Assembly: GCA_965223325.1 (NCBI GenBank)
Contig: CBDCWI010000001.1
Location: 128,001 to 192,000 of the forward strand
DNA: 64,000 bases
From: Candidatus Multivoradales bacterium
Lineage (GTDB): Bacteria; Acidobacteriota; Thermoanaerobaculia; Multivoradales; Multivoraceae
Reading direction: 5' to 3'
Shown here: positions 45,108 through 48,004 of the stretch, piece by piece
Layout: each line of letters opens with the position of its first letter
How positions within the stretch are numbered: the first letter of the stretch is position 1
Notes under the pieces: generated by a model
Told to the model about the DNA's origin: nothing
Databases searched by the model: none
The model's input: the letters and a program-made list of their open reading frames with translations, nothing else
Made by a program: the position numbers and the translations under genes

Positions 45108-47132
45108 TCAAATGCTCGAGGAGCCCGCGTTCGAAGTCTGCGGCGCCGTTTCAGGGGTGGTCCCGGTGTCGTTCTTGCCGTCGTCCTGTTCGAGCTCCGC
45201 GAGCCGGATACTGCGTGAGTAAACGCGGTGGACGGCTTGCACGAGGCCGAGGCGGTTCTGGCGCTGCTCGTCATCATCCGTGCGCACGAGAACCTCGGTC
45301 ATGAACCGTTCGACAACCTCGCCGAGCTCGAGCATCCCGGCGAGCCAACGTTCATGCTCGGGACGAGCACCGGCTGCCGGCGCAGTCACCACCGAGCGAA
45401 TCACCGGGCGCACCCGCTCGAGCGTCTCCCACAGTGCACGCTCGGCCGGCTCCCGCAAGCGAGTAGGGTCGACCTCCCGCTCGGGGGCCTCCCGCAGAAT
45501 CGACACCATCCGTCGCGCGGTCCTCACGACCCGGGCCAATCCTTCGCGGCCGCGCAGGTGGGTCAACAGACCGAGGCGGGCCTCGACGTCGCCAATCAGG
45601 CTGCTACCACCGGCACCGAGCACCGCTTCGACCTCGCCTAGTTGGTAGCCGCGCTCGGCGAGGACCGTTCGCAGAATCCGCGTGCGCAAAGGGCGCAGAT
45701 CCATCAGTACGGCCTCGTCGCTCCTCCTTGCCCCTCGCTGTTGCAGACGAACCGCCCGCGCGGTCGCCAGGTCGAGATCGAGCGGCAGGCGAGTCCGAGA
45801 GAGCGTCTTGATCACTTTGTAGAGCGCCCGCCCGACCTCAGCGTCGTCGGCGCCCTCGAGTTCACGGGTGCTCATCGTGACGGCCCGGGAGGCCACCAGG
45901 TCCAGGGCATTGGCGATCTCGACCACCTGGCGCACGCCGAAGCGTTCAGCATCAACGGCGGCATCAGCGGCCGTCTCGTCGTCGGGCGATTCCGTGGCTC
46001 CTCCCAGGCAGCGCCCGCCGGCGATCGCCCGCCACACCGACTCGGGGTAGCCCTCGTCTCGGGCCATCAAAGCACCAACGACTCCCGCCAACCCGGGGTA
46101 CTCCAGAACGGTCTCGGTCGCCCGATCGGCCGGCGCCATCTGCGCCGCCTCGCGCGCGCGGTCGGCGCGCTCCTGCCATCCAAGATCGCCGCACAGGCTT
46201 TCGGCGAGCGTTGCCACCCGATCGATTCGTTCTCCCCAGGTACCACTACCCACACCGTAGCGACGTGTTCGTAGCTCACGCGCAAAACGCGCCAGAGGCT
46301 CCGAACGATCGCGCGCCCAGAGGACAGCCAGATCCTCGAGGCGTTCGGTGAGCCGCCAGGAGTGACCGAGGCCAATCGCCCCATCGGGATCGTCCGGCCG
46401 GTCGAGAACCACCAGCACGCGATCCAAGAGCTCACCGCCCGCGGACGCGCGCAGTGGAAAGACCTCCAGCCGCTCTTTCAAACAGTGTTCGACCAACACC
46501 TCTGGCAGCCCCCGAAAGACCGGCGGCAGATCGACGGTGATGACCCCTGGGCTTTCGAGACTCCAGACCAGTTCATCAATCAGTGACTCCACGCCGCTCA
46601 GTTCGGCGCCAGCTTCTTTCGCACGCTCCTCGAGAGCGGCAAAGAGCGTCGACCGACGCTCGGCTGGTTGAACCAGAACACCCCGTTCCTCGAGCGCCGA
46701 GAAGTAGTCCTCGGAGGTCGACGGTGAAAAGGGGTCAGGCGACAAGACGGGGTGCCCAATCGAAGTCGCGCCGGTCTCGACTCCCAGAACCCTCGCCTGG
46801 CAGGCCTTTCCATTGACCAGCAGCAACGCCCCGACGGGCTCGAGAACATCCCAATCACCGTGCCGTTTGTTGCCGGCCGACGAGAACGGGGCAAAGGTCG
46901 CGAGAACGGCATCGACGGCGGCCCCAACGACGCGCTCGCCGTCCCTGCCTTCGTCGCTGAGCCGTAGGGCAACCACCAAACGGCGGCAGGTCGCGCCGCT
47001 TCTCCCGCGGTCGCACTGGACACCGGCGGCAAGCAGTTCACGCACCACATGGCCACGCAGGGCCGGGCCGAGCTCCCGGGCACGAGCCCGAGGGAGGCCG
47101 TCGAAGCGAAGCTCGAGCAGAAAGTCGCTCAC
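45108..47132 (-). CDS. glyS: Highly divergent glycine--tRNA ligase beta-subunit homolog
   Basis: DFLLELRFDGLP, TCRRLVV, SLESP, ADRATETVLEYPGLAGVVG and RQNRLGL echo GlyS motifs; 674 aa; GTG overlaps the glyQ stop; recO-glyQ-glyS-ppdK synteny. Confidence 0.7.
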   Translation of the reverse strand: MSDFLLELRFDGLPRARARELGPALRGHVVRELLAAGVQCDRGRSGATCRRLVVALRLSDEGRDGERVVGAAVDAVLATFAPFSSAGNKRHGDWDVLEPVGALLLVNGKACQARVLGVETGATSIGHPVLSPDPFSPSTSEDYFSALEERGVLVQPAERRSTLFAALEERAKEAGAELSGVESLIDELVWSLESPGVITVDLPPVFRGLPEVLVEHCLKERLEVFPLRASAGGELLDRVLVVLDRPDDPDGAIGLGHSWRLTERLEDLAVLWARDRSEPLARFARELRTRRYGVGSGTWGERIDRVATLAESLCGDLGWQERADRAREAAQMAPADRATETVLEYPGLAGVVGALMARDEGYPESVWRAIAGGRCLGGATESPDDETAADAAVDAERFGVRQVVEIANALDLVASRAVTMSTRELEGADDAEVGRALYKVIKTLSRTRLPLDLDLATARAVRLQQRGARRSDEAVLMDLRPLRTRILRTVLAERGYQLGEVEAVLGAGGSSLIGDVEARLGLLTHLRGREGLARVVRTARRMVSILREAPEREVDPTRLREPAERALWETLERVRPVIRSVVTAPAAGARPEHERWLAGMLELGEVVERFMTEVLVRTDDDEQRQNRLGLVQAVHRVYSRSIRLAELEQDDGKNDTGTTPETAPQTSNAGSSSI

Positions 47133-48004
47133 CGGGAGCCCGCCTTTTCTCTGCGGCGACGCGCCTCGGCCACAATTCGCAGCAGCAGCTCGCGCACCGC
47201 GTCGGCCGGGGCCTCGGGAACCGGACTCGAGCCCAGACCTGGGGCTTCGAGCAGGCTGAGGTCTCGGTAGGCCTCGAGCAGGCGACGGTAGGCGAGATGG
47301 ACCGCTCCCGCGTCGAGCGCCAGTTCTGCGTCTTCGAGCGTCGCCCGCGCCAATTCCATGAAGCGTGCCTCGCCAACTACCGCGGCGTGGTAACCACGCA
47401 GGTCGGCATCGGCGTCCCCTCGAACCGCCTGCCAGGAAGTATCGGGTGCCCATTGCAACTCGGCCAGGGTTGCGGCCCCCTGACAGAGACGCGCCAGCGA
47501 TTCGAGCCGCAAAACGACTTCGGCGAGGACCGCACCCGAGCCGAGGCCGGCGAGCCGATCGACAATCGCCAGCCGGCCGAGGTTGAGGCCATTGACGCGC
47601 AGTCTGTGCCCGCGGGCACGAATGTCATGGCTGGGAAGCTCGAGAGCCAGGTCTTCGAGGCGAACGTCCATGCCCGATTGGCACAAGCCGGTCTTCTCGA
47701 GCACCTCGATCACCTCCACCAGGAGGCCGCGCTCGGGAACCGGGCGGAGGATGGCCTGGCAAACCAGCTCCGAGGCCGGTCGACCCCCGAGCAGGCGAGT
47801 ACGCCCAGGCAAGCGCGCGATCGTCTGCACCTGAACGCTTGCGGAATGGTCGCTGCCGAGCAGGAGGTCGGGCGACATCAGACTGTCGGGCAGTGCCAGC
47901 TCGGGCGACGGCAGCACAACGGCTCCCGCTCCGCGCCAGTGCTCGAGCAGAACCAGCAGCAGGTCTTCGGCAACCCGCGATGGAGCACTGGCATCGACCC
48001 TCAT
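47129..48004 (-). CDS. glyQ: Degenerate glycine--tRNA ligase alpha-subunit homolog (catalytic motifs lost)
   Basis: 291 aa, colinear with GlyQ by eye (CQAILRPVP, DVRL, NGL, EVVLRLESLA..QG, AYRRLL...LLEA); position directly after recO. Confidence 0.7.
   Translation of the reverse strand: MRVDASAPSRVAEDLLLVLLEHWRGAGAVVLPSPELALPDSLMSPDLLLGSDHSASVQVQTIARLPGRTRLLGGRPASELVCQAILRPVPERGLLVEVIEVLEKTGLCQSGMDVRLEDLALELPSHDIRARGHRLRVNGLNLGRLAIVDRLAGLGSGAVLAEVVLRLESLARLCQGAATLAELQWAPDTSWQAVRGDADADLRGYHAAVVGEARFMELARATLEDAELALDAGAVHLAYRRLLEAYRDLSLLEAPGLGSSPVPEAPADAVRELLLRIVAEARRRREKAGSR

Follow-up and report, generated by a model that had tools for sequence, protein, structure and literature searches.

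We analysed a stretch of 64,000 nucleotides (the window) from Candidatus Multivoradales bacterium (GCA_965223325.1, contig CBDCWI010000001.1, positions 128,001 to 192,000 of the forward strand), in which an open reading frame (ORF) resembling glyQ, the gene for the alpha subunit of bacterial glycyl-tRNA synthetase (GlyRS) of the (alpha-beta)2 type, lies between recO and a gene resembling that of the beta subunit, glyS, which is in turn followed by ppdK (Table 1). The GlyQ-like ORF comprises 291 codons, begins with ATG and contains zero internal stops. Its start overlaps the recO stop codon (ATGA), with a GAGG approximately 10 nt upstream, and its stop codon TGA is overlapped by the GTG with which the GlyS-like gene begins (GTGA); both junctions can be read directly and are as an earlier note on this DNA had described, and the same overlaps are present in canonical operons and hence ancestral. 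The gene order ybeY-era-mgtE-recO-glyQ-glyS-ppdK is common to the window and its relatives, so that the recO-glyQ-glyS-ppdK slot named in that note is also upheld, and the ppdK product is 62-68% identical to that of relatives. Our data suggest that this pair of genes derives from a displaced GlyRS and that relaxed purifying selection probably maintains it in a non-catalytic form with some dispensable role, with a structurally different GlyRS of the alpha2 type, encoded elsewhere in the genome, predicted to charge tRNA-Gly.

The GlyQ-like protein matches PF02091 (GlyQ) with 42.2 bits against a cut-off of 27 bits, over model positions 3-251 of 278, where the canonical GlyQ proteins of sister families give complete matches of 428-453 bits on the same model. 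The NCBIfam equivalogs TIGR00388 and NF006827 score 44.2 and 40.5 bits, respectively, far below their cut-offs of 369 and 361, and by these scores the protein appears to be a GlyQ homologue and not an equivalog. An AlphaFold2 (AF2) model built on a 41-row alignment has a pLDDT of 89.3 and a pTM of 0.88, and the best PDB matches of this model in Foldseek are all GlyQ chains (TM 0.84-0.88, 16-21% identity); the GlyQ fold, which the earlier note had proposed to check, is thus predicted. A word-based homologue search with the protein returned only itself, and a search of 1.84 billion representative proteins gave 27 non-self matches, of which no full-length one exceeds 34% identity; P0011 and P0016, multi-stretch matches that reach 38-39% identity over short stretches, were left out of later alignments.

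The comparisons below draw on the window's own genome (G000; 6.69 Mb in two contigs, C1 of 2.14 Mb and C2 of 4.55 Mb, 98.2% complete) and on two samples of related genomes. The first holds 41 relatives including G000, with 24 other genomes of the window's family (f1, sampled across 13 genera), two of a second family with an alpha2 GlyRS (f7) and 14 of other families; the second holds 121 genomes of the order, all at least 90% complete (f1 18 plus G000, f7 17 and ten other families 85). The active site was read from a MAFFT alignment of the window GlyQ-like protein with Escherichia coli GlyQ and five canonical relatives, using 14 functional residues (E. coli numbering) that the structural and mutagenesis sections of PMC8464048 and PMC4938167 assign to the glycine pocket (T39, Q82, Q84, W121, E162), to ATP and Mg binding (R64, D67, R76, E134, E141, R169) and to discrimination (T146, F148, T164). 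Only R64, R76, Q84 and E162 are kept in the window protein (4/14), compared with 13 of the 14 in the canonical relatives. None of the Mg/ATP ligands D67, E134, E141 and R169 survives, E134 being absent from the canonical relatives as well, and in E. coli the R169A substitution alone lowers glycine activation approximately 123-fold (PMC8464048). The motif replacements quoted in the earlier note (GAGT to PDSL, QPSRRPTDGRY to QTIARLPGRT, HYYQFQV to SELVCQA and EITYGLERL to EVVLRLESL, among others) are all visible against E. coli and the five relatives. Its statement that the ATP-binding arginines of motifs 2 and 3 are both lost holds for motif 3, where R169 is replaced, and is not borne out for motif 2, because phmmer and MAFFT both align the arginine of 'IAR-LP' with E. 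coli R64. Across the order, f1 copies keep 3-7 of the 14 residues, f7 copies 6-8 and canonical copies 13, and the residues lost differ from lineage to lineage. Of the 25 representatives aligned from the database matches, 21 lack four or more of these 14 residues where covered, so that degenerate GlyQ-like proteins form a diverse population and not a single oddity. Judged from these replacements, the GlyQ-like protein is predicted to be catalytically dead.

The earlier note took the neighbouring genes to be normally conserved, which fails for the GlyS-like partner: it scores 212 bits on TIGR00211 (cut-off 300) and 147 bits on PF02092 in the genome search (160 on the ORF), compared with 532-613 for canonical copies. 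With the E. coli GlyS domain limits as given in the text of PMC8464048, there is no domain B2: of the segment at E. coli beta 66-124 only 5 of 59 residues can be aligned, and about 56 aa are missing. Seven of the 10 family copies share this deletion and an eighth retains 16 residues, with B2 kept in genus g10, in f7 and in canonical copies; B2 has been proposed, in that same account, to bind the tRNA elbow (PMC8464048). Also gone are the HD-cavity residues K394 and Y434, and loop H18-19 ('DPFGLRR'), which reads the acceptor stem and U73, is not conserved; the acceptor contacts R482 and R531 are kept in 1/10 and 0/10 f1 copies, respectively. The anticodon-binding domain (ABD) has fared differently. 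Taking the contacts F652, V655, V657 and M658 from the description in PMC9908026, V655 is kept in 10/10 f1 copies, V657 in 9/10 and a hydrophobic residue at F652 in 10/10, as is the R585 equivalent in every f1 copy, and M658 is replaced by R or H in all ten, a family-specific signature. The AF2 model of the GlyS-like protein (17 rows) has a pLDDT of 85.0, with low confidence at residues 84-95, in the private insertion at 378-393 and in the C-terminal tail, and its best Foldseek matches are GlyRS beta chains (TMq 0.74-0.78).

Table 1. Features of the GlyQ-like/GlyS-like locus, with positions in the window
Feature	Position	Strand	Evidence and remarks
GlyQ-like CDS, 291 aa, intact, putatively catalytically degenerate	47129..48004	-	ORF, PF02091, alignment, AF2/Foldseek
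motif-2 region, residues 58-70 (QVQTIARLPGRTR)	47795..47833	-	R64 equivalent kept; D67 equivalent replaced by P (phmmer, MAFFT)
motif-3 region, residues 162-170 (EVVLRLESL)	47495..47521	-	E162 kept; T164 replaced by V, R169 by S
GlyS-like CDS, 674 aa from GTG at 47132	45108..47132	-	domains B1, B3, HD and ABD present; B2 missing; DALR_1 match
in-frame B2 scar, between GlyS-like residues 57 and 58	46959..46964	-	alignments
insertion/replacement private to G000 in the HD domain, residues ~372-396	45945..46019	-	alignment; pLDDT <50 at 378-393
arginine equivalent of E. coli beta R585 (contacts C36 of tRNA-Gly)	45510..45512	-	kept in 10/10 f1, 2/2 f7
ABD anticodon-loop contact segment (RFMTEVLVRTDD, residues 609-620)	45273..45308	-	family-conserved; family-specific M658 to R/H
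recO	48001..48828	-	RecO_N and RecO_C domains, TIGR00613; stop overlaps GlyQ-like start (ATGA)
ppdK, 3' of the GlyS-like gene	42308..45094	-	PPDK domains; start at 45094 inferred

When GlyS-like residues 1-285 were modelled together with the GlyQ-like protein, the complex prediction gave a score of 0.85 (median of three runs; best control 0.01). Among solved complexes 58 of 80 attain this mark, and among mismatched pairs 2 of 110. At least 81% of contacts are common to the runs, with a partner pLDDT of 77 or more. Since a homologous complex has already been solved, the score shows likeness to that complex and is not proof of binding.

G000 encodes a second GlyRS on its other contig, an alpha2-type enzyme (C2:3002818-3004284) that matches NF003211 with 587 bits (cut-off 312) and TIGR00389 with 454 bits and whose best solved relatives are bacterial alpha2 GlyRS chains. 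The GlyQ-like ORF is the single GlyQ match in the whole genome, and there is nothing unusual about the three tRNA-Gly genes (CCC, GCC, UCC), which carry G1-C72 and U73. Within f1 the alpha2 enzyme is 72-79% identical, a level of conservation which, with the model score, agrees with the proposal of the earlier note that glycylation is carried out by an alpha2-type GlyRS elsewhere. On this sequence evidence we conclude that the alpha2 GlyRS is in all likelihood what now charges tRNA-Gly in G000, and that the GlyQS pair would not be the genome's glycylating enzyme. The distribution of the two types follows the same line. In the first sample the alpha2 GlyRS was found in 22 of the 24 other f1 genomes (the two misses being 73% and 79% complete), in 2/2 of f7 and in 0/14 of other families; in the second it was found in 18/18 of f1 plus G000, 17/17 of f7 and 0/85 of the ten other families. 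Canonical GlyQ (within the range given above) and GlyS (532-613 bits) were found together in the second sample only in those ten families (83/85), and f7 carries GlyQ of 165-281 bits and GlyS of 295-492 bits in the same 16 of 17 genomes. In the first sample GlyQ and GlyS co-occur perfectly, the degenerate pair being present in G000 and 9 of the 24 f1 genomes, from 8 of 13 genera (GlyQ 42-157 bits, GlyS 147-273 bits), and not found in the remaining 15. GlyQS is thus degenerate or missing only in the two families that bear an alpha2 enzyme. The alpha2 proteins of f1 and f7 share only 49-52% identity with each other (76.5% within f7), and the match of the f7 enzyme (L068, L069) to NF003211 is broken in two near model positions 157-160; this divergence and the two-piece match are a hint of two acquisitions, and the enzyme may have been acquired separately in f1 and f7, although a tree of RecO and MgtE places both families on one side of a branch (SH-aLRT 86).

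Some genomes depart from this pattern in ways of their own. For G035 (f12, 97% complete) and G036 (f2, 94% complete) the family models found neither GlyQ/GlyS nor an alpha2 GlyRS, which could reflect assembly gaps or a third route to glycylation. In G059 (f10, canonical) the GlyQ match falls in three pieces, one with an internal TAG, and in G068 (f11, canonical) in two, each in a different open frame; either frameshifts from assembly or genuine breaks could be the cause.

Canonical GlyQ is 83-85% identical between families. The GlyQ-like protein of G000 shares 23-26% identity with canonical copies and only 30% with its counterpart in G001, the sole other species of its genus, a comparison in which RecO, MgtE, Era and PpdK reach 56-68% and the GlyS-like protein 41%. 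Maximum likelihood (ML) tree distances from the canonical node are 0.14-0.21 for canonical GlyQ, 1.6 for f7, 2.0-2.7 for f1 and 3.6 for G000 and G001, and those of GlyS are 0.23-0.61 for canonical copies, 1.2-1.3 for f7 and 1.5-2.15 for f1. The acceleration is therefore approximately 10- to 20-fold in the alpha subunit and approximately 3- to 4-fold in the beta subunit.

We propose that the ancestral glyQ of this Acidobacteriota lineage would still sit in its ancestral recO-glyQ-glyS-ppdK slot, that an alpha2 GlyRS encoded elsewhere would have taken over tRNA-Gly charging, and that, on release from catalytic constraint, GlyQ would have lost most of its glycine-, ATP- and Mg-binding residues. 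GlyS would then have lost the acceptor-stem/discriminator loop and, in most f1 copies, the B2 domain. Both genes would still yield full-length, folded proteins under relaxed purifying selection, with the GlyQ-like protein as a scaffold or dimerisation subunit of a non-catalytic complex and the ABD of the GlyS-like protein able to recognise tRNA-Gly. As some sister lineages have deleted the pair, any role it has would be a dispensable one. A more specific form of this proposal, namely that in both families selection keeps a non-catalytic complex which has shed catalysis and the elbow and acceptor contacts and still reads the tRNA-Gly anticodon, we regard as possible though doubtful. If true, bacterial pseudo-synthetases would gain a new kind, which might sense, sequester or chaperone tRNA-Gly and which, unlike the known cases, would have its origin in a displaced orthologue after replacement by the other GlyRS type and not in a gene duplicate.

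The strongest competitor to a retained pair is a functionless relic in slow decay, whose frames would be open since stops are rare at 68% GC and too little time has passed, with deletion to follow, and the signatures of selection bear on both. Both proteins can be aligned with their homologues in a single frame from end to end, and there is no internal stop in any pair-bearing genome (G000, nine of f1 and 16 of f7, with G013 present as fragments only), nor any frameshift, so that neither the frame disruption nor the neutral evolution that define a unitary pseudogene was found for the pair. In simulations of neutral substitution without indels the GlyQ-like frame alone stayed open in approximately 7% of runs (134-156 of 2000), which a relic could accommodate, whereas the 674-codon GlyS-like frame stayed open in just 0-3 of 1000. 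The pair has moreover lasted for as long as two families have been diversifying. At 30-39% identity, 46 columns are invariant and 52 near-invariant among the ten GlyS-like sequences, and G000 keeps 84 of the 105 GlyS-like columns (80%) that are conserved in the other nine family copies (family range 78-92%). For the GlyQ-like protein it keeps 23 of 42 such columns (55%; family range 55-81%). GC content at second codon positions (GC2) is still 0.49, against 0.75 at third positions (GC3) and a neutral equilibrium of approximately 0.78 taken from the base frequencies of the simulation, and the G000 and G001 proteins remain 30% identical where approximately 13% would be expected under neutrality at K=1.5. 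The open frames, the family-conserved columns and a GC2 far from neutral composition together argue against free, neutral decay. What they suggest is relaxed purifying selection, weak on the GlyQ-like and moderate on the GlyS-like protein; relaxation is also seen in the canonically invariant GlyQ columns, of which only 21/153 are kept in at least seven of nine family copies, and in the composition, where the residues F, Y, M, I, N and K (FYMINK) make up 6%, below the 1st percentile of the genome's long ORFs, and GC content at first positions (GC1) is 0.80. A relic would explain that composition as well, together with the long GlyQ-like branch (3.6 against 0.14-0.21) and the clean loss of the pair in other genera. 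On balance we consider decay without function unlikely.

Several observations weigh against retention of the pair for a role and should be set beside this evidence. Both proteins are at their most degenerate in G000 itself, whose copies score lowest of all (GlyQ-like 41.8 and GlyS-like 147.4 bits, genome search), as decay would predict. The ratio of nonsynonymous to synonymous substitution rates (dN/dS) is not measurable because pairwise dS is saturated in all pairs (ML dS 2.9-43, with one erratic value of 0.49), the absence of a close orthologue among the 1.84 billion representatives leaves no unsaturated comparison, and with dS saturated the Nei-Gojobori (NG86) ratios of 0.45-0.58 for the GlyQ-like protein are rough upper bounds only. 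The pair was not found in 5 of the 13 f1 genera, including g11 (17/17 genomes in the second sample and 10/10 in the first), and a tblastn search for GlyQ or GlyS remnants 3' of recO in five pair-less genomes found none; in one of these five, G011, mutL follows recO. In the two-protein RecO and MgtE tree the pair-less f1 genomes do not group together but form two clades, from which at least two losses follow. The predicted alpha-beta interface of f1 is hardly distinct from the rest of either protein (GlyQ-like 0.292 vs 0.247, p=0.12; GlyS-like 0.383 vs 0.364, p=0.23), compared with 0.86 vs 0.57 in canonical GlyS, and so the interface is not specially conserved, which counts against its being specially maintained and is again as expected of decay. 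In G000 other residues stand in place of the HD motif 'YD..LPRGR', which all 16 further sequences of the GlyS alignment retain, the conservation of the ABD loop could be simply structural, and the AF2 and complex models rest on alignments that contain canonical homologues. The suggestion of the earlier note that the pair is kept for a non-catalytic role is hence plausible and not proven, with the open frames, the conserved columns and GC2 speaking for it and the unremarkable interface and the repeated losses against it.

It is also conceivable that the frames are kept open only for passage of ribosomes from recO to ppdK (translational coupling, or avoidance of Rho-dependent polarity), the products themselves being irrelevant. 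The 4-nt overlaps at both junctions would suit such a translated spacer, as would a GlyQ-like sequence that changes very fast with its frame kept, the position of ppdK after the GlyS-like gene in six of the f1 loci examined (L021, L022, L024, L026, L027, L029) and the lack of promoter-like or terminator-like sites between the genes (a scan of the locus returned 0 promoter-like sites and four terminator-like sites, no more than in shuffles). A spacer would, however, have no need of the invariant GlyS-like columns or of an anticodon-loop motif, the same overlaps are ancestral in canonical operons, and f7 keeps the pair in 16/17 genomes though no ppdK was found beside it in the two f7 loci examined, one of which is on a contig that ends soon after glyS. 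We therefore find this explanation improbable.

A neofunctionalised enzyme, in which a remodelled pocket would activate another substrate or transfer it to tRNA or another acceptor, could draw on the equivalents of R64, R76, Q84 and E162 kept in G000 and on beta R326, which contacts the ATP gamma-phosphate and is likewise kept in the G000 GlyS-like protein. The threonines that exclude alanine are replaced in every degenerate copy except for T164 in G005, and the pocket-closing W121 in 8 of 11 degenerate copies. Yet four Mg/ATP ligands are replaced in G000, and the replacements are lineage-specific with no new shared pocket signature, only 10 conserved GlyQ columns being specific to f1 and all of these L, A, R, C or the start M. 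Such an enzyme is distinctly improbable for the window. The f7 copy G030 (L030), which also speaks for this reading, retains every ATP/Mg ligand apart from E134 (five of six) plus Q82, Q84 and E162, without W121, T39 and the alanine-excluding threonines, and from its sequence this protein may have an enlarged pocket and perhaps still bind ATP and another substrate. That the window pair is still a working, if highly divergent, GlyRS of the (alpha-beta)2 type, perhaps a second synthetase used under certain conditions, is highly improbable in spite of its full length, operon context and predicted fold and complex, as 10 of the 14 functional residues are replaced, including W121, T39 and Q82, which the available descriptions hold to be conserved in all (alpha-beta)2 GlyRS (PMC8464048; PMC4938167), B2 and the U73-reading loop are lost, and the GlyQ-like protein evolves approximately 20 times faster than canonical GlyQ next to an alpha2 enzyme conserved at 72-79%.

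Two trivial origins of the GlyQ-like ORF were considered and rejected. An assembly artefact is contradicted by a 9.6-kb contig of the public run X1 that covers 45100-50200 with 0 differences and 0 gaps, X1 being possibly the source sample and so not independent; runs X5-X7 gave a few 151-base pieces, all identical to the window where placed. Among the public runs listed for this DNA, none is of RNA. A chance ORF is contradicted by in-frame homology across the full GlyQ-like length (phmmer, MAFFT). An antisense ORF of 248 aa (47297-48043, plus strand) covers most of the GlyQ-like gene and many other long overlapping ORFs were called, a usual effect of high GC, so that ORF length alone proves little here. 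An Rfam scan gave no match near the GlyQ-like/GlyS-like locus. Approximately 11 kb away lies a mobile group II intron, of which domains D1-D4 were recognised at 35929-36147 on the plus strand (RF02005, 180.6 bits; gathering score 49). ARAGORN called 48 tRNAs on C2 of the genome and just three on C1, two of which look doubtful, while the third, tRNA-Arg(cct), has an exact duplicate close to where C2 starts; C1 carries era, recO, ybeY and ppdK despite its few tRNAs.

GlyRS is the textbook example of a single task performed by two enzymes that look unrelated, types which the literature covered here regards as nearly exclusive of one another. It is also described as among the most evolutionarily stable synthetases in the text of PMC5388404. 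The order studied here offers a natural series, from canonical GlyQS only, through an alpha2 GlyRS with mildly degenerate GlyQS (f7) and an alpha2 GlyRS with strongly degenerate GlyQS (B2 still kept in genus g10 and already lost in most other f1 copies), to an alpha2 GlyRS only, and so makes the displacement of a synthetase directly observable. The series also suggests an order of loss, in which the catalytic pocket would go first, then the acceptor and elbow contacts, with the fold and the anticodon pocket persisting. If this persistence is functional, it would provide a new route by which pseudo-synthetases originate and a tractable tRNA-Gly-binding protein; if it is not, it would calibrate how long a 3-kb dead operon stays open in a high-GC genome.

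With canonical GlyQS the window pair shares full-length homology, predicted folds, operon order, overlapping junctions and the anticodon-contact residues of the ABD. It differs in keeping 4 of the 14 functional residues of GlyQ in place of 13-14, in the loss of B2, the acceptor/U73 loop, K394 and Y434, in falling far below the NCBIfam cut-offs and in apparently not being its genome's glycylating enzyme. The coexistence of both GlyRS types has been called 'extremely rare', with one case among 542 proteomes, Haloactinopolyspora alba (bioRxiv 10.1101/2023.05.29.542759). That organism likewise carries alpha2 and (alpha-beta)2 gene sets in one genome, and the portion of the preprint at hand describes no degeneration there, whereas coexistence here is family-wide (16/17 in f7; G000 plus 9/24 in f1) and the (alpha-beta)2 type is degenerate in every aligned copy. 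Yeast GRS2, as summarised in PMC3306390 and PMC9437257, resembles the window pair in being a second GlyRS gene, kept beside the main enzyme, with little or no housekeeping importance; unlike the pair, which belongs to the other structural type and in which catalytic residues are lost, GRS2 is presented there as a same-type duplicate, active though poorly, and stress-inducible. A literature search found no description of a degenerate GlyQS in the texts it reached, and supplementary distribution tables or alignments might already list Acidobacteriota with both types; no GlyQS-derived case appears in the portion covered of Table 1 of the pseudo-synthetase review PMC9437257.

The analogy drawn by the earlier note was with HisZ, and it fits loosely. 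Like HisZ and the other pseudo-synthetases covered in that table and its accompanying text (PMC9437257), the GlyQ-like protein has a predicted class II synthetase fold, has lost aminoacylation residues and is encoded by an intact gene. HisZ, however, is described there as a duplicated paralogue beside a working HisRS of the same type, with a known partner, HisG. The GlyQ-like protein is instead an ancestral orthologue in its own locus, putatively displaced by a structurally different GlyRS and with its own beta partner kept; the single GlyQ match in G000, the ancestral syntenic slot and a presumed working enzyme of the alpha2 type do not fit an origin by duplication, and our analysis identified no candidate partner other than the GlyS-like protein. 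The part of the analogy that stands is therefore an apparently dead synthetase fold kept intact, and the part that does not is the recruitment of a paralogue. Non-catalytic relatives of synthetases, such as HisZ, are already known as duplicated paralogues with a new partner, and the pair described here differs from them as a putatively displaced orthologue that retains its own beta partner in its own locus.

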